Of a stretch of 25,688 nt of DNA, positions 8,504-24,404 are shown piece after piece. Each line of letters opens with the position of its first letter. Within the stretch, counting starts at the first letter, position 1. The position numbers and the translations under genes were made by a program. The stretch is from a virus (taxonomy: Duplodnaviria > Heunggongvirae > Uroviricota > Caudoviricetes): the IMG/VR virus record IMGVR_UViG_2925939204_000005; one strand, given 5' to 3'. A model generated the notes under the pieces. That model was not told the DNA's origin. It saw nothing but the letters and a program-made list of their open reading frames with translations, and made no database searches.

Positions 8504-8755
8504 TGAGATTAAAGTTTATTAGTTCAGATATTGATTGGCTCTTTTGTGGAGTAGGGTAGAGTTAGTGTGTTTGTCTGCTTGGTGCCAGCAGCGGATATGT
8601 TTAACAACAGAAAGCATTCAGCATGGTTAGTGGGTTTGCAAAGTGGATTAGGATTTGAGAAACTTTGATGAAGTTGTAAAGCTTGTTTCTATAAAAATAG
8701 AAATTTAACTAATAGTTAAACACACCTCCAGCTTCATTGAAAAGGATTATTAGCT

Positions 8756-9655
8756 ATGATTGATCCACTTATTAGAAACTTACAGAGTGATATTGCACTA
8801 CTCCAGCTTTATATCGCGCAACGCAAACAGGCAGGCTTTCATGACATGGAAAGAATAATTGAGTCATTGACCATCTTTATGTTTCGCGCGCTGAAAATGG
8901 GTGAACTGGTAAACATGAATCAGATTAAAGTTAATTTTCCCGCCATTGATTTAGCTGATAATAAAAACATGATAGCAGTTCAAGTTACTACGAATGCAAG
9001 TCCAGCAAAAATTAAAAAAACTATCGAATCTTTTGAGAAAATAAATGAAATAGGAGAGAGTCTGAAAGATAAATACTCTACTTTATATATTTTTGGTTTT
9101 TGTAAAGCCTCAAGATACCTAACTCCAAGTTATTGTAAAATAATCGACCCCAGCTATTTCGTGAATGAACTTTGCGATAAAGCAGATGAAGATATGGTCC
9201 AGGATATGATTGACGCCATTCGACGCCATCATGATTATACATCATTACATCCATGGAGTGATAAAGATTCACTCGAAATTATACTCAATATTATTAATCG
9301 CAATGCAATAAAACATCGGATGAGTTGCGAAGGCAGTCTGTCTGATATGCTCACTGGTTTAAAAGAAATTAATGAAGTAATTACAAAAGGAACAATTCAA
9401 CGTAAGCAACGTTCAAAATCGATATCTGACTTCAAAGATCAAAGCATGGTGAAATTTATGAGAGGTGTAATGGATGATTTGTCTGTTATTCAAGCCATAG
9501 TGAACAAATCTAAAGTTAACCAAGGTGATATGGTTTATATAAGCCATGAAGATATGATTAATATTGATAAATTAAAAGCTAAAATAGCAAGTGATTCATC
9601 AGAGATTGCAAGGCTAAATAATATTGATATAACACTAAATGTTGTTGATTTATAA
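8756..9655 (+). CDS. SMEK-domain-like protein (299 aa), candidate defence/abortive-infection cargo
   Basis: AT-rich gene with AAGGA SD. N-terminal region (NFPAIDLADNKNMIAVQVTTNASPAKIKKTIESF) matches my recollection of the SMEK domain (PAID-LAD ... IA-QVT). C-terminal about 170 aa have no recognised motif. Confidence 0.6.
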   Translation: MIDPLIRNLQSDIALLQLYIAQRKQAGFHDMERIIESLTIFMFRALKMGELVNMNQIKVNFPAIDLADNKNMIAVQVTTNASPAKIKKTIESFEKINEIGESLKDKYSTLYIFGFCKASRYLTPSYCKIIDPSYFVNELCDKADEDMVQDMIDAIRRHHDYTSLHPWSDKDSLEIILNIINRNAIKHRMSCEGSLSDMLTGLKEINEVITKGTIQRKQRSKSISDFKDQSMVKFMRGVMDDLSVIQAIVNKSKVNQGDMVYISHEDMINIDKLKAKIASDSSEIARLNNIDITLNVVDL

Positions 9656-9969
9656 TTGTCGATTTAGCAAAACAGAGAATGCTTTGAAAGTTTCACCGAG
9701 AAATATTTATTGTGAACCTCCTTATTGTTTATCGACTTTTACTCTCCGCTCATTGCAGTACTGTCGGAGAAGGCTACTATGTACAAGAAGCAGCTAACAT
9801 AAGCGAGCATCACTATTGATATTAGGAAGAGTATATAAAAACTTCATGCTGAACCTTACAAAAGTAGGTAAACCGGCAATGGCCTAAGTGGCAGGGTCAT
9901 GTTGATCCGGCAATGCCGAGCTAATAATTAACAAGCAAATCACTCTTTCTAATAATTTGTTGAAATAAA

Positions 9970-10629
9970 CTAAATATGTATATGTTTACCAACAACCACA
10001 TATGAACTACCTGCTTTGCTCCATGATTTTATTATTTCTAAATTATTATCTGAGCATATTTTACTTACAGTATCCACATCTAATAAACCATAGTAGAAAG
10101 CATTACGAGAGTTTTGGTATATATACCCATGCAAATGTTTAATACCGCTCTCGTACCTCTTGAAATAAGAACTTTTGTATTGATTGACAATCAGTGCTTC
10201 ACCATCACTCTTTAATAATTCTCTAATCGCACTGAGGACTTTGTGAATTGTGGATTCACATGGAATTGCGGAAAGCACGTTTGCGCAAAGTATGAAATCA
10301 TAATGATTTGTTATTTTATCTATATTTTCATAAGAAACAATATTAGCATTCTTATAGTTATTTATCACGTAATCTGGAATCGTGGTTTGTACACCTCTGA
10401 TAATTTGCACTCTTTCTAGTTGTCTTCTGGAATCTAAAAATGTCACAGTTTCAAATTTATTTACTAATTGTTCTGAATATCTAAGTTTTCCACATCCAAA
10501 ATCAAGGGCATTGCCATTTTTATTAGTGCTTTCAATCTGTTTACAGAGATAGTTAGATGGCATAGTGTGCGGTTTCGCTGCATTTTCTGAACGTATGTTT
10601 ATTCCATTTATTTTGTAATTCAAAATCAA
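9970..10629 (-). CDS. Class I SAM-dependent methyltransferase (about 217 aa)
   Basis: Motif I LDFGCGKLRY, acidic residue ending beta-2 (VTFLDS) and motif-II-like DFILCANVL. The ORF-track start at 10629 is TTG; a TTG at 10623 with GAGG 6 nt upstream is an alternative. The gene starts 6 nt after the upstream membrane-protein stop, suggesting an operon. Confidence 0.65.
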   Translation of the reverse strand: MILNYKINGINIRSENAAKPHTMPSNYLCKQIESTNKNGNALDFGCGKLRYSEQLVNKFETVTFLDSRRQLERVQIIRGVQTTIPDYVINNYKNANIVSYENIDKITNHYDFILCANVLSAIPCESTIHKVLSAIRELLKSDGEALIVNQYKSSYFKRYESGIKHLHGYIYQNSRNAFYYGLLDVDTVSKICSDNNLEIIKSWSKAGSSYVVVGKHIHI

Positions 10630-10635
10630 CCTCGT

Positions 10636-11331
10636 TTAAAAAATATTGTTATTGTTAAAGAATTCTTTTATTTTGCTATCAGGTATTTGTCTTACTTGGC
10701 TTTCTGTTCTTGGTTTAACTGATGCTATGAAAATAAGGAAGTCAAATGCGACAAGAGAAATAATCCACAACCAAAGATTAATTAAAGAGCCAGTAACAGA
10801 GAATATATTTGTTAATTTGGCGATACTTATTATTAAAATAGTAACAAATGCGATTACTGTATGTTCAAAGAAAACCCAAAAGTAATAAACTTTGTTCCAG
10901 AAAAGTTCAACGTAATGTTTGTCTTTTAACTCTTTAACTTCTGGGTAATACAGTTTACTCATTACCTTGTGAGATTCATCAGTAGTTAATTTTCTCGTAA
11001 CGCCTGCAATTTTTGCTAATGGTTTAATAATTAAATGACTATCCCACATCTTCCTTATTCCAATAATTTTTGCTACATTATTATGTAGATCTAAAGCTCC
11101 ACTAATTACTGACCAAAAAACTGAAGATGCAATTGGTAATATGCCAAAGGTTAATATCCATTTAATAAATTCCTCGTAGTCTTTAACGGGGGGGATATAC
11201 TTGGCATTAATGCCAACCAATGGCATGTAGCCATAAATGACTAATGATAGGTAAAATATAAATGTAGTAATAAAAGTCGCCTTATGGAGCATAGGCAACA
11301 TTTCATTATAACTCTTTGGTGGTTCTAACAT
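10636..11331 (-). CDS. Integral membrane protein (about 231 aa, about 4 predicted TM helices), unknown function
   Basis: ATG at 11331 with GGAG SD (the ORF-track start at 11343 is TTG). Hydrophobic stretches at about residues 20-45, 65-85, 150-180 and 190-215; AT-rich codon usage; first gene of a two-gene operon with the methyltransferase. Confidence 0.6.
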   Translation of the reverse strand: MLEPPKSYNEMLPMLHKATFITTFIFYLSLVIYGYMPLVGINAKYIPPVKDYEEFIKWILTFGILPIASSVFWSVISGALDLHNNVAKIIGIRKMWDSHLIIKPLAKIAGVTRKLTTDESHKVMSKLYYPEVKELKDKHYVELFWNKVYYFWVFFEHTVIAFVTILIISIAKLTNIFSVTGSLINLWLWIISLVAFDFLIFIASVKPRTESQVRQIPDSKIKEFFNNNNIF

Positions 11332-12073
11332 TTTACTCTCCAAACACTCAAAAAAAAGCTAATCTTCTATAATAACGAAATTCAGCTGGCACAATTAAAG
11401 ATTAATTGCCACCAATTTCTTGATTTTATAATTTTATCTAAATGTTTTTGATTAATCTAGTCCTAAAAGAAACCTACTGCATAAATATTTATGCTGATGA
11501 CCCACTCCCTGTTCGTTAACACATAGCAACGTTAGTAATGCATCCTAAGTGATCAATATTTTTGCTAGCTTCATCTGCTCGCTCAAAGGGAACTATAATG
11601 TTGGCTTGCGTGTGACTTGGCATGTTTAAAGAAGTGCTGGTGGTGACTGGTTGCTGTTTTCCATTTCCACAGAACAAAATCATAGAAACTATACCCAGTA
11701 GTTGTATTGAATCACTGACGAGACAGCCTCATATTTATCAGGACTGGTGTACGTCCAATACAGGAGGTTGTGGTGCTGGTTCTCAAATGTGCGCTGGCTA
11801 TTGCTGCTGTAATGGCAATTTATTGTCTTGCTGTTGTTCTTATGGATCACCTTTCTGATTGATTTCATATTGGCGAGGTAACGGTAGTTAAGTAGAATTG
11901 CTGCGGGTGCTTGAGGCTATCTGCCTCGGGCATCAACACCAAAGGCAGATAGAGAAAAGCCCCAGTTAACATTACGCGTCCGGCAAGACGCTTAACATTA
12001 ATCTGAGGCCATATCTATGCTCTACACACGTAGGTTAGCCTCTTACGTGCCGAAAGGCAAGGAGAAGCAGGCT

Positions 12074-14644: not shown

Positions 14645-15169
14645 TTATTGTTTAACCCATAATAGTTCATTGACATTGAATCCCAACTTTTGAGCGGTAC
14701 GCACATAGTCTGCTTTTACATTATCTGGAATAGTTTGGGTCCTTGCCAGAATCCATAGGTATTCTCTGTTCGGACCACTGACAAGAGCATACTTATACTC
14801 ATCATCCAGCTTGATTACATTATAGCCACCATAGAAGGGGCCAAAAAACGAAACTTTCAACGCTGCAGTTTTAGTATCTCCAGTAAAGTATGCTTTACCT
14901 TCGCTCTCGCTCCATTTGTTTTTCGTTGGATCGTATCCACGGTTAAGTACGCGAATCCCTCCGTCGTTCCGTTTTTCATAAGTAGCGCTGACCTGTTCCA
15001 GACCACGTTCGAACCAGTTCTCGAGGCGAGCTATTTCATACCATTTTCCGAGGTAGCGGTTGGCGTCAAAATTTGTAATCGGCTGCACACCTTTAGGTGG
15101 TGTCGGGGCCTTACATGCTATAAAAGTGAAAGAGAGTGCAATGCCAGTCAACACAGGCCATAACTTCAT
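14645..15169 (-). CDS. Bacterial lipocalin (Blc-like outer-membrane lipoprotein), moron
   Basis: 174 aa with a lipoprotein signal and lipobox (FTFIAC) and lipocalin motifs (NFDANRYLGKWYEIAR ... KVSFFGPFYGGYNVI), clearly homologous to but diverged from chromosomal Blc; opposite strand to the late operon. Confidence 0.85.
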   Translation of the reverse strand: MKLWPVLTGIALSFTFIACKAPTPPKGVQPITNFDANRYLGKWYEIARLENWFERGLEQVSATYEKRNDGGIRVLNRGYDPTKNKWSESEGKAYFTGDTKTAALKVSFFGPFYGGYNVIKLDDEYKYALVSGPNREYLWILARTQTIPDNVKADYVRTAQKLGFNVNELLWVKQ

Positions 15170-15361
15170 AATAAATCCTGTACTTTTGATAGTTGAGAGT
15201 AAGTATGAAAGATAGATGAGTACGACCGATCACTTAAAGAACTTTCCTACTATATTAGGAATAGTCAATAACAGAAAAATTGTCAGTGATGAAGCCAGAA
15301 AGGCAATTTAGTCCGTGCACTACAAAGTTTATGTGTTAATGAATTAGTCAAGGGGGAGGAA

Positions 15362-16321
15362 ATGATAAAAAAACCTGTGATTGGGATCAGCGGTTGTTTG
15401 GGCGGTTCTGCTGTTCGTTTTGATGGTGGTCACAAAAGAGATGACTTTTTAATGGACAAATTAGTGGAATGGGTAACATTCAGACCAGTATGTCCGGAAA
15501 TGGCTATAGGGCTGCCAGTTCCGCGTCCTGCTCTACGACTTGTGCGCTCGAAGCAAGGAAATATACGGATGTGTTTCAGCCACGACCAGAATGAGGATGT
15601 GACAGAGAGAATGACAGAGTTTAGTCGTTCTTATATGGACAAATTAAAGGATGTATCGGGGTTTGTGGTTTGTGCTAAATCTCCCAGCTGTGGCATGGAG
15701 CGCGTGCGTGTCTATGATGAAAATGGTAATCGAGGTCGTAAAGATGGAGTGGGACTATTTACGAGCACTTTGATGGAAAAGTTTTCCTGGCTACCGGTTG
15801 AAGAGGATGGGCGATTACATGATCCAGTGCTTCGTGAGAATTTTATTGAAAGAGTTTTTGCTTTGCATGAGCTCAATCATCTTTACAAGGAGAAATTATC
15901 AAGAAGAGAGTTATTAGCTTTTCATAGTCGTTATAAGCTTCAGTTGTTGGCGCATAGCCAGGCAGGCTATAAAGATATGGGACCATTTGTGGCTGCAATA
16001 CACGAGTGGGCGGACCTTGAATCATACTTTGAGGTGTATCGTGATAATCTGATGGCGATTCTCAGAAAACCAGCATCACGTAAAAATCACACGAATGTGC
16101 TGATGCATATACAGGGGTATTTTAGTAATTACTTAAGTACACGCCAGCGTAAAGAGTTGAGCGAGGTTATACTTAACTATCGCTTTGGCACATTGCCTCT
16201 TCTTGCGCCGTTGACTCTGCTGAAGCATTATCTGGGTGAGTATCCAAATGATTACTTGCTTACACAGAATTACTTCGATCCCTATCCGGAAGAACTGGCT
16301 CTAAGACTGATGGTGAATTAA
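15362..16321 (+). CDS. DUF523 + DUF1722 two-domain protein (YbgA/TudS-like), moron
   Basis: 319 aa with strong SD (AAGGGGGAGGAA). N-terminus has conserved Cys residues (GISGCLGG ... VCPE ... CAKSPSCG) typical of DUF523 (putative Fe-S, thiouracil-desulfidase-like) domains; C-terminal half resembles the YbgA-type DUF1722 domain. Confidence 0.75.
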   Translation: MIKKPVIGISGCLGGSAVRFDGGHKRDDFLMDKLVEWVTFRPVCPEMAIGLPVPRPALRLVRSKQGNIRMCFSHDQNEDVTERMTEFSRSYMDKLKDVSGFVVCAKSPSCGMERVRVYDENGNRGRKDGVGLFTSTLMEKFSWLPVEEDGRLHDPVLRENFIERVFALHELNHLYKEKLSRRELLAFHSRYKLQLLAHSQAGYKDMGPFVAAIHEWADLESYFEVYRDNLMAILRKPASRKNHTNVLMHIQGYFSNYLSTRQRKELSEVILNYRFGTLPLLAPLTLLKHYLGEYPNDYLLTQNYFDPYPEELALRLMVN

Positions 16322-16480: not shown

Positions 16481-16756
16481 GTGGCTTCTGTTTCTATCAG
16501 CTGTCCCTCCTGTTCAGCTACTGACGGGGTGGTGCGTAACGGCAAAAGCACCGCCGGACATCAGCGCTATCTCTGCTCTCACTGCCGTAAAACATGGCAA
16601 CTGCAGTTCACTTACACCGCTTCTCAACCCGGTACGCACCAGAAAATCATTGATATGGCCATGAATGGCGTTGGATGCCGGGCAACTGCCCGCATTATGG
16701 GCGTTGGCCTCAACACGATTTTACGTCACTTAAAAAACTCAGGCCGCAGTCGGTAA
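16481..16756 (+). CDS. insA: IS1 InsA (91 aa)
   Basis: [40 protein letters not shown]...: canonical InsA with zinc-finger and HTH. Confidence 0.9.
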
Positions 16757-17178
16757 CCTCGCGCATACAGCCGGGCAGTGACGTCATCGTCTGCGCGGAA
16801 ATGGACGAACAGTGGGGCTATGTCGGGGCTAAATCGCGCCAGCGCTGGCTGTTTTACGCGTATGACAGTCTCCGGAAGACGGTTGTTGCGCACGTATTCG
16901 GTGAGCGCACTATGGCGACGCTGGGGCGTCTTATGAGCCTGCTGTCACCCTTTGACGTGGTGATATGGATGACGGATGGCTGGCCGCTGTATGAATCCCG
17001 CCTGAAGGGAAAGCTGCACGTAATCAGCAAACGATATACGCAGCGAATTGAGCGGCATAACCTGAATCTGAGGCAGCACCTGGCACGGCTGGGACGGAAG
17101 TCGCTGTCGTTCTCAAAATCGGTGGAGCTGCATGACAAAGTCATCGGGCATTATCTGAACATAAAACACTATCAATAA
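16675..17178 (+). CDS. insB: IS1 InsB frame (167-aa annotated ORF; expressed as InsAB' by -1 frameshifting)
   Basis: [21 protein letters not shown]...: canonical InsB reading frame; the A-run slippery site lies in the insA/insB overlap. Confidence 0.85.
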
Positions 17179-18454: not shown

Positions 18455-18748
18455 TTATTGTGAGCAATACACACGCGCTTCCAGCGGAGTATAAATGCCT
18501 AAAGTAATAAAACCGAGCAATCCATTTACGAATGTTTGCTGGGTTTCTGTTTTAACAACATTTTCTGCGCCGCCACAAATTTTGGCTGCATCAACAGTTT
18601 TCTCCTGTCCAATTCCCGAAACGAAGAAGTGATGGGTGATGGTTTCCTTTGGTGTTACTGCTGTCGGTTTGTTTCCAACAGTAAACGTCTGTTGAGCACA
18701 TCCTGTAATAAGCATTGCCAGAGCGGCAGAAAACAACATTTTTTTCAT
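18455..18748 (-). CDS. bor: Bor lipoprotein (serum-resistance protein, 97 aa)
   Basis: Internal Met of ORF 18455..18796: MKKMLFSAALAMLITGCAQQTFTVGNKPTAVTPKETITHHFFVSGIGQ..., recognised as lambda Bor; lipobox LITGC; opposite strand downstream of Rz as in lambda. Confidence 0.85.
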   Translation of the reverse strand: MKKMLFSAALAMLITGCAQQTFTVGNKPTAVTPKETITHHFFVSGIGQEKTVDAAKICGGAENVVKTETQQTFVNGLLGFITLGIYTPLEARVYCSQ

Positions 18749-22671: not shown

Positions 22672-23259
22672 ATTCGTAATGATTACCTAAATACGTTATT
22701 CTTTTGTTCAAAAAGTGATTTTGCTATAGGTAGGGAGTATGTTCTTGGATTAAGAATAAAAATCGCCATGAAAGAGCTTCATGGCGAGTACATAAACGTA
22801 CAAAATATGATGAAAGTAGAGTGGCGTAAGCCACTATATTAAGATATGACAATAGCGAAGAAAAGTAAATAACATTTTATGGGCGTTTAATTGTCAATTA
22901 TAAAAACTAGAGTGCCCGATATTGTTTATCTTGCTTTAAAATAATGTACTCAAACCAAATTTTTGAGCTAAAAGCTCAAATAATATAAATGCAATGATAA
23001 TGTTTAATAAGACAATTAGCTTGCTTTGTATTTTCATTTCGGAATACTGTTAAGTAACTTTGATGACACTAACAATAGATCGGAATTTTCTTAGAGTCAA
23101 TGGTCACTGTTTTTGCTTGCAAAGCAAATGTTTTTGGTGGTTATAAGTTTTCTTAATATAGTCACCTATGCAACTTGTTCCTTGTGGAGATTAAAGGTTA
23201 AAATTTAATGCGAAGATGGAATTATAATATATTTTTTTATAATTAATTTAACCTTAACA

Positions 23260-23358
23260 TCGTTGCTGGCGGCATGGAAGAAATATCGGGTCTTGCTGAT
23301 GTCGTGTTGGCACTTCCTTAGTGCGGTTATCGAATGGCCAGCTGTACCTGTGGGGTAA
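23260..23358 (+). pseudogene. Fossil tfa 3' end (C-terminal about 33 codons only)
   Basis: Aligns by eye to the 3' end of tfa (22566..22671) and translates to [32 protein letters not shown]-stop. No upstream tfa body; AT-rich flanks. Confidence 0.6.
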
Positions 23359-24014
23359 AAACTTTATATGGGTGCTATTTTTATAATAGCTGGTAAAAAC
23401 TGGCCGAACTGAAATTCACTGTTGATAAAAAAGATGTGTTTGAGTGTATGTCATTGTTTTCTTAATGGAATCCACTAGAATGCAGCGAATTTAAGAAGGT
23501 GGGTTTTTATTGGAATATAAACTACAATAATGCTCAACTCGTTCGTAGAATTGTTTTTTCTTATTTTTTGGAATGCTAACCATTATATGCATTATGGGGG
23601 CGATACTTCCTGATAATTTACATGATGCATACATTGAAGCAATAAATTCAATATCATTGTCATCAAAGTTAAAGCTTTCTCCGTCCATTTCAATTCCTTA
23701 TGTGTTTGGCACAACTGATGCTGTATCCCATGAGAATTTATGCAAGTTGTTATGTTTGATTTGATATTGCAATGATAATTGTAGCTAATTGTTTTCAATT
23801 GAGTGAAAGTTTATTTCGAGTGATTAAGTCGAAAAAAAAGATTTCTCACGGTTAGTAAGCGTATTAGGTTAGTATTCAGATATGAATGGTATTAATGACT
23901 AAATTTTCAATCATATATGGATTTTTATGCTGATGAAGATGTTTTATTTGGCGATTCGTCAAGCATCTTCACTTAAGTAATCGTATATTTTAAGAGTGCA
24001 AAAGAGAAAGGGAC

Positions 24015-24115
24015 AACGTTGCTCGCACTCTGGATTAAATATAGGGTGTTGTTAAACTGCGTTGATACATAATTGTACCGGATATTGAGTGGTCTGAAGT
24101 CCCAGTCATTAAGTA
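24015..24115 (+). pseudogene. Second fossil tfa 3' end (frameshifted)
   Basis: Nucleotide similarity to the tfa 3' end; translates in two frames to TLLALWIKYRVLLNCVDT-stop and VPDIEWSEVPVIK-stop. Confidence 0.55.
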
Positions 24116-24404
24116 ATCGTTTCGTGATATGCCGCAGAAACGTTGTATGCAATAACGTTCTGCGGTTGGCTGATGCACTTTCGAGAGTGTATTGAATAAT
24201 TTCAATCCGTTATTGTTTTTACGCGTAACACCATGAAAAGACTGCTTATCTGTTGGGGTATTTTTTGGGGCATATATGGGACAGAAATAGGCCACAGATA
24301 GATAGTAAGATCGAACTCAGGATGCTTTTGAAAAAATGTAACTATCTGAAAAAACCTAGAAAGCGCCAAGGAAACCACAGAATGAGAAAAAACATCTGTG
24401 AATT

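Follow-up and report, generated by a model that had tools for sequence, protein, structure and literature searches.

A SMEK-domain protein with a family-specific helical C-terminal domain in a Qin-type prophage of Escherichia coli: a candidate single-gene defence nuclease

The window (the whole stretch of DNA analysed here, 25,688 nucleotides) encodes a 299-aa protein in which an N-terminal SMEK domain is followed by a helical C-terminal domain found in its own family alone. What is new is the occurrence of a known nuclease effector module in an Argonaute-free, single-protein architecture. By analogy with related systems, and with a confidence just short of even, we regard the protein as a self-contained two-domain defence nuclease that is carried on mobile elements and gated by its own helical domain. 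The defence role is one that we infer from genomic context. The SMEK domain call is not new in itself, since RefSeq already names WP_000566848.1 a "SMEK domain-containing protein"; this label (NCBIfam NF033859) covers the first ~95-130 residues only. Neither stand-alone SMEK proteins nor their C-terminal domain appear in the searchable literature, and none of the PADLOC models describes a SMEK domain joined to this helical domain.

Gene and local signals

The gene is an open reading frame with an ATG start, present exactly as the initial annotation had described it, and the motif quoted there, NFPAIDLADNKNMIAVQVTTNASPAKIKKTIESF, corresponds to residues 60-93 of the protein (Table 1). The same annotation had given the gene a Shine-Dalgarno sequence of its own, an AT-rich upstream region and a convergent orientation relative to a methyltransferase operon, and all of these were found: AAGGA precedes the ATG, the G+C content is 32.9% in the gene and 31-37% in the surrounding island as against 45-50% in the flanks, and the two genes that face it, for a methyltransferase and a membrane protein, both lie on the minus strand. 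A consensus scan of the 250-nt spacer upstream of the gene revealed no sigma-70-like promoter, and no terminator was seen around the gene in the promoter/terminator scan. Regarding RNA genes, Rfam independently detects DicF, sok and IS009 in the window, with no RNA family near the SMEK gene, and no credible small ORF adjoining the gene was found.

Table 1. Features of the SMEK gene and its cassette, in window coordinates
Feature	Position	Strand	Basis
SMEK-domain protein gene, 299 aa, RefSeq WP_000566848.1	8756..9655	+	ORF list, RefSeq annotation of identical locus, homologues
Shine-Dalgarno-like AAGGA	8742..8746	+	9 nt 5' of SMEK ATG; direct sequence reading
N-terminal SMEK_N domain (aa 1-131), predicted restriction-endonuclease-like alpha-beta core	8756..9148	+	Pfam, NCBIfam, PDB 26bh, AF2
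Candidate active-site codon E36	8861-8863	+	invariant 55/55
Candidate active-site codon D65	8948-8950	+	invariant 55/55
Candidate active-site codon Q76	8981-8983	+	invariant 55/55
Candidate active-site codon T78	8987-8989	+	52 T + 3 S among 55
Candidate active-site codon K85	9008-9010	+	invariant 55/55
C-terminal family-specific helical domain (aa 132-299)	9149..9652	+	
Class I SAM methyltransferase	9970-10629	-	ORF list, annotation
Multi-pass membrane protein, 235 aa	10636-11343	-	ORF list
Low-GC cassette (31-37% GC), SMEK + methyltransferase/membrane pair	8573..11497	.	87.9% match to pK820-1; GC

N-terminal SMEK_N domain

Both curated libraries that hold the domain recognise the N-terminal part of the protein. 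Pfam PF21941 (SMEK_N) matches residues 10-120 with E=2.2e-22 and 79.9 bits (curated cutoff 27), and NCBIfam NF033859 (SMEK_N) matches residues 5-95 with E=1.3e-30 and 105.1 bits (curated cutoff 30). SMEK_N is also matched by all 30 aligned full-length relatives, and the profile search of the 299-aa protein gave no match to a housekeeping family. In PADLOC, the Argonaute-associated model Aga_REase-PNTD1-PNTD2 was matched at its REase part only (profile positions 9-143 of 463), while PHROGs gave a weak match to a family annotated as unknown function. A profile of the 30 full-length relatives matches one solved structure, PDB 26bh (E=3.7e-12), which is the Mrr domain from the Kordia jejudonensis Mrr-APAZ pAgo. 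The SMEK identity, first proposed from a motif, thus has the backing of two curated libraries as well as that of homology with a solved SMEK/Mrr domain.

Residue conservation was analysed in an alignment of 55 sequences, composed of the window protein and 54 representatives of 50%-identity clusters that are 17-49% identical to it (median 24%). The five candidate active-site residues of Table 1 align with identical residues in PDB 26bh, and the motif NFPAIDLAD...QxT...K is present in both. The AF2 model of the protein has a mean pLDDT of 86 and a pTM of 0.70, and in the N-terminal domain it predicts helix 31-45, strands 66-68 and 73-81, helix 83-94, and strands 109-118 and 127-130. Judged from this secondary-structure order only, the predicted domain has the alpha-beta-beta-beta-alpha-beta core topology of the PD-(D/E)xK class. 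Of the D...(D/E/Q)-x-K signature, D65 and Q76 are present without exception, whereas T78 stands at +2 in place of the lysine; the invariant K85, on the next helix, could replace the canonical lysine.

In published work SMEK is treated as an Mrr-like PD-(D/E)xK nuclease and is listed among the APAZ-fused effectors of clade S2B short-Argonaute systems, and the Kordia SMEK-APAZ/pAgo heterodimer showed weak, collateral DNA cutting in vitro (PMC10810196, PMC12205087, bioRxiv 10.1101/2023.06.08.544223). In November 2025 SMEK-type effectors were still called "tentative nucleases" (PMC12738770).

C-terminal helical domain

The C-terminal ~170 residues had been described as lacking a recognisable catalytic signature, and no known sequence or fold relative emerged for them. 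Residues ~150-299 are left uncovered by Pfam, NCBIfam, PHROGs and PADLOC alike, and searches of PDB sequences and PDB folds returned no relative; the domain matches its own family alone. Its core is predicted by AF2 as an up-down four-helix bundle (helices 169-182, 195-210, 229-251 and 264-287), and D169, R182, A184, E192, G212 and K221 are near-invariant in the 55-sequence alignment. A profile search with this domain against 1.84 billion representative proteins gave 94 matches, among which the sole long outlier is a repeat artefact. The near-full-length matches are mostly ~290-320 aa long with the domain at the same position, and all nine distant carriers tested also have SMEK_N. The dN/dS ratio is 0.14-0.20 in the C-terminal domain and 0.13-0.29 across both halves of the protein. 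Given this low dN/dS and the conservation of the full length across phyla, the C-terminal half is a real domain under purifying selection.

A HEPN RNase reading of R182-x4-H187 was considered and rejected, because the histidine is only 64% conserved (35 of 55 sequences, with Asp in 17 of 55) and neither profile nor fold similarity of the domain to HEPN was found; R182 itself is kept in 53 of 55 sequences. The hhalign comparison with a protein of DUF4145, a HEPN-type family, was likewise null.

Distribution and other architectures of SMEK_N

Full-length homologues with both SMEK and the C-terminal domain are found in gamma-, beta- and alpha-proteobacteria, Campylobacterota and Bacteroidota, down to 17-49% identity. 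The island that carries the gene in the window is 100% identical to E. coli chromosomes. Of 5426 complete genomes, 150-151 contain it, 145 of them at an identity of at least 99%, so that about 3% of complete E. coli genomes have the cassette. It is absent at the DNA level from the phage collection searched. The gene is dispensable and occasionally lost, as indicated by two clinical E. coli genomes (FXCREC004 and FXCREC035) whose island is interrupted by ISApl1 (IS30-family), by another E. coli genome with a frameshifted SMEK gene, and by a truncated form of 119 aa with 15 database entries.

A homology search with the N-terminal domain only returned fragments alone, and the architectures of SMEK_N elsewhere were surveyed by tblastn on plasmids and phages. 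SMEK_N is joined there to other C-termini, in a TPR protein of 1105 aa and a protein of 344 aa from an SPbeta-like region, and also occurs as a solo form of 109 aa. Since its C-terminal partners differ in this way, the sequences are consistent with SMEK_N being an effector module with interchangeable partner domains. The 1105-aa TPR-annotated protein, which has a SMEK-like N-terminus, is encoded on the Herpetosiphon plasmid pHAU01 (L039 1824-7237) divergently from a reverse transcriptase gene, and the two may form a different SMEK-based conflict system. A SMEK_N-like fragment, 35% identical to residues 5-93, is also present in the P2-like Klebsiella phage ST15-OXA48phi14.1 (L042 3983-4270). 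It is the last feature of the genome as deposited, just beyond the integrase, under the name 'regulator of acetyl CoA synthetase', and is probably a cargo gene cut at the record boundary.

Proposed mechanism and comparison with known systems

The mechanism proposed for the SMEK protein is drawn by analogy from the SMEK/DREN-APAZ-pAgo systems, in which a partner module licenses a collateral nuclease. The SMEK domain would be a metal-dependent PD-(D/E)xK-type nuclease whose canonical lysine has shifted out of the beta-strand (T78) and onto the following helix (K85). For the helical domain we propose the role of APAZ-pAgo: it would hold the nuclease off until an infection cue is sensed and/or drive oligomerisation, and the cue could be a phage protein or a nucleic-acid structure. 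Once freed, the nuclease would degrade phage and/or host nucleic acid, and in the case of the window the outcome would be a lysogen with a Qin-type prophage protected against superinfection. A more specific version, possible but less likely than not, is a single-protein immune system whose new, family-only helical sensor directly detects a phage component and unleashes the Mrr-like SMEK nuclease. If so, the protein would represent a minimal Argonaute-independent counterpart of SMEK-APAZ/pAgo that prophages, plasmids and integrative islands have disseminated from Proteobacteria to Bacteroidota.

The nearest known system is the SMEK (Mrr-like)-APAZ short-pAgo effector of Kordia jejudonensis (Kim et al. 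2020, as cited in PMC12205087). The two have homologous N-terminal nuclease domains (E=3.7e-12) with an identical E...NFPAID...QxT...K motif, and in both the nuclease is followed by a non-catalytic partner domain. In contrast to the Kordia effector, the window protein has no APAZ, as its PADLOC match ends at position 143 of 463, and no Argonaute or PIWI gene is annotated in the window or conserved as a neighbour in 27 loci; its partner is instead a 170-aa helical bundle, by prediction, unique to its own family. SPARDA (DREN/DUF4365-APAZ + short pAgo) also has a PD-(D/E)xK-type effector with a D/Q/K site, and DREN, like SMEK_N, is joined to other partner domains outside pAgo systems. There the effector is inactive until a fused sensor is triggered, which leads to abortive infection, and the same logic is proposed by analogy for the SMEK protein. 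Unlike SMEK_N, the DREN of SPARDA has an Hjc-like topology and belongs to a different Pfam family; SPARDA is activated by RNA-guided DNA recognition and filament formation.

Mrr and the type IV enzymes (PF04471; AspBHI) are a further point of comparison, and the SMEK protein could itself be a direct restriction enzyme of this kind, with the C-terminal domain reading DNA or a modification and SMEK cutting foreign DNA, without any sensing or suicide step. Such enzymes are likewise partner-free single polypeptides whose fold is of the restriction-endonuclease class, they too occur in defence islands, and the one-gene organisation fits them. In published work SMEK is classed as Mrr-like and AspBHI is named as its nearest nuclease, SMEK-annotated proteins have elsewhere been called plain restriction endonucleases (PMC10318531), and the conserved basic or polar residues R182, K221 and K274 of the C-terminal domain could contact DNA. 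We nevertheless consider this reading unlikely. No sequence relationship is detectable: Mrr_cat (PF04471) was matched by 1 of 30 family members (E=0.095), and direct Mrr membership was rejected when the family profile gave an hhalign probability of 0.4% against E. coli K-12 Mrr. The order of the domains is reversed, the catalytic one being N-terminal in the SMEK protein, and the canonical ExK lysine is replaced. By prediction the C-terminal domain is a generic helical bundle that resembles neither a winged helix nor SRA nor any other DNA-reader fold known, and the characterised SMEK/DREN-type effectors are collateral, not targeted, nucleases.

The same replacement raises the question of activity. 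An inert nuclease-fold protein, serving as a DNA-binding regulator or a structural factor of the mobile element, would account for QxT in place of the canonical ExK, for the fold searches with the SMEK protein, which gave no significant nuclease match, and for the legacy names 'regulator' and 'regulator of acetyl CoA synthetase' on some records of homologues. But the Kordia domain, for which nuclease activity has been reported, has the same QxT...K pattern, and DREN, a proven nuclease, likewise uses D/Q/K. In addition, E36, D65, Q76 and K85 do not vary in any of the 55 sequences, as a catalytic site should not. The 'regulator' names were transferred from older records without support, and the domain searches turned up neither an HTH nor any other regulator domain. 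Inertness is therefore improbable.

If the gated nuclease is the true function, a compact 0.9-kb single-gene defence system would be added, and the SMEK module, so far studied only as a short-Argonaute accessory, would be seen to work with other sensors. Such a system would be easy to dissect experimentally, being composed of one protein that offers five invariant residues as catalytic candidates together with a small putative sensor domain. If the protein proves to be inert, or no more than a regulator, the finding is an ordinary one.

Genomic context

According to the annotated locus of strain AR_0128, the window spans a cryptic lambdoid prophage of the Qin/Kim type that is flanked by rspB and ydfJ. 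The order 5' of the SMEK gene is int, xis, exonuclease, dicB, DicF, dicA, dicC, a ydaT-like gene, a hypothetical gene and DUF977. It continues with SMEK, the methyltransferase, a hypothetical gene, hokD, rem, DUF968, Q, blc and a ybgA-like gene, followed by IS1, the lysis genes, iss, and terminase and tail remnants. Window positions 8504-12073 were compared with the Qin prophage that K-12 has at this chromosomal site (L044 15120-17324). Between the dicC-side genes and hokD, K-12 has flxA, ydfV and relBE where the window has the SMEK cassette, and the slot is therefore an exchangeable accessory position. The Qin-type slot between replication genes and hokD is thereby documented as a position for exchangeable cargo.

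The cassette has a continuous nucleotide identity of 87.9% with the Citrobacter koseri IncHI2 conjugative plasmid pK820-1, where it adjoins a recombinase and an integrase. The SMEK, methyltransferase and membrane proteins are 90, 85 and 91% identical, respectively, to their plasmid counterparts. At the cassette ends, the repeats found were short AT-rich chance matches only.

The SMEK gene and its homologues are carried by a prophage, a conjugative plasmid and integrase-flanked islands, with integrases and resolvases on the flanks of some, in variable surroundings that are often rich in defence genes. Lamassu-like genes lie near the homologue in Citrobacter, a Gabija-like ATPase and a UvrD helicase in Xanthomonas, Abi_alpha in Vibrio and SLATT_5 in Pseudomonas. 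At 17 further loci, 109 ORFs within ±4.5 kb of SMEK were scanned, which gives a qualitative association without a background control. PADLOC identified a CBASS cyclase (6e-147), a 4TM effector (4e-164), DpdF in two members (best 2e-116), a defence reverse transcriptase (6e-108), ShosA (3e-67), IetS (1e-58), PDC-S05 (2e-132) and PDC-S19 (6e-130), together with AriA, PtuA, AbiLi and MADS components, so that PARIS- and Septu-type ATPases are among the neighbours. In the same 109 ORFs, Pfam identified two Mrr_cat nucleases and a pPIWI-associated nuclease beside ordinary metabolic genes.

As a separate observation, the gene that directly follows SMEK in two unrelated genomes, of Enterobacter and Cupriavidus (L003 7407-7871; L015 7154-7369), encodes a SymE-family toxin, and the symE gene of K-12 (L043 4500-4841) is located within the hsd/mcr/mrr immigration-control region. 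This recurring proximity of SMEK and SymE might be more than chance.

The context also bears on whether the protein is an addiction toxin, stabilising the mobile element by post-segregational killing together with an unrecognised antitoxin. The slot is that of relBE in the Qin prophage of K-12, the SMEK gene is ~2.4 kb from hok/sok, genes of SymE and TacA/acetyltransferase-type TA systems adjoin SMEK at some other loci, and the gene is always on or near mobile DNA. On the other hand, neither a conserved adjoining ORF nor an RNA antitoxin, as judged by Rfam and by the search for credible small ORFs, accompanies SMEK, and an addiction role seems rather improbable. It cannot be separated cleanly from the gated defence nuclease, given that TA and defence functions overlap.

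The neighbourhood of the gene was surveyed at six diverse homologues and in 21 species-representative loci, and the neighbours differed from one to the next. The ORFs of 27 non-redundant loci were then clustered all against all. Only SMEK is conserved across these loci, the next cluster being an AraC-type regulator present in three. The absence of a conserved neighbour makes the SMEK gene a stand-alone unit, in agreement with the initial annotation. In 37 other SMEK loci (~30-87% identity), no homologue of the methyltransferase or of the membrane protein of the window was found, and another SMEK variant of E. coli, with a nucleotide identity of 79%, stands by itself next to two integrases. Conversely, four other contexts contain the methyltransferase/membrane pair (60-79% identity) but no SMEK: in P2-like prophages of Enterobacter and Providencia the pair comes right behind ogr, and elsewhere it lies near a relaxase or next to icd. 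SMEK and the pair are thus two independent modules co-packaged in one low-GC cassette, and the trio was rejected as a functional unit. A supposed three-gene module shared with Pseudomonas was rejected as well: its 219-aa and SLATT_5 genes match the pair by size, and since BLASTP found no homology, the resemblance is a size coincidence.

As for the neighbouring methyltransferase, its matches are to small-molecule-type families (Methyltransf_12/23, TehB) and not to DNA methylases, and it is not co-conserved with SMEK, which is not what a restriction-modification system would present. A three-gene system of SMEK, methyltransferase and membrane protein, with the methyltransferase preventing self-damage by the nuclease, for example, is largely refuted and very improbable, for although the genes share a low G+C content (31-33%) and the 2.9-kb block moves as one (88% between the E. 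coli prophage and the Citrobacter plasmid, and 80-90% in five further E. coli genomes), each part occurs without the other as described above, the convergent orientation implies separate transcripts, and the methyltransferase is not of the DNA-modifying type.

The pair is a conserved two-gene operon in its own right. The membrane protein has no Pfam or PADLOC match; its family comprises 38 clusters, found in Enterobacterales only, and is always encoded directly upstream of the methyltransferase. The pair could be an uncatalogued defence or lysogenic-conversion module.

Other cargo of the prophage includes the non-phage genes for the blc lipocalin (minus strand) and a YbgA-family protein, located between Q and the lysis genes (14645-16321), an IS1 at ~16481-17178, and the serum-survival gene iss after the lysis cassette (18455-18748). 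Further on, the G+C content falls again to 32-35% in the interval that separates tfaQ from the truncated ydfJ (22700-24400); this interval is nearly devoid of long ORFs, RefSeq annotating in it only one hypothetical gene of 65 aa at ~23491-23688 on the minus strand.
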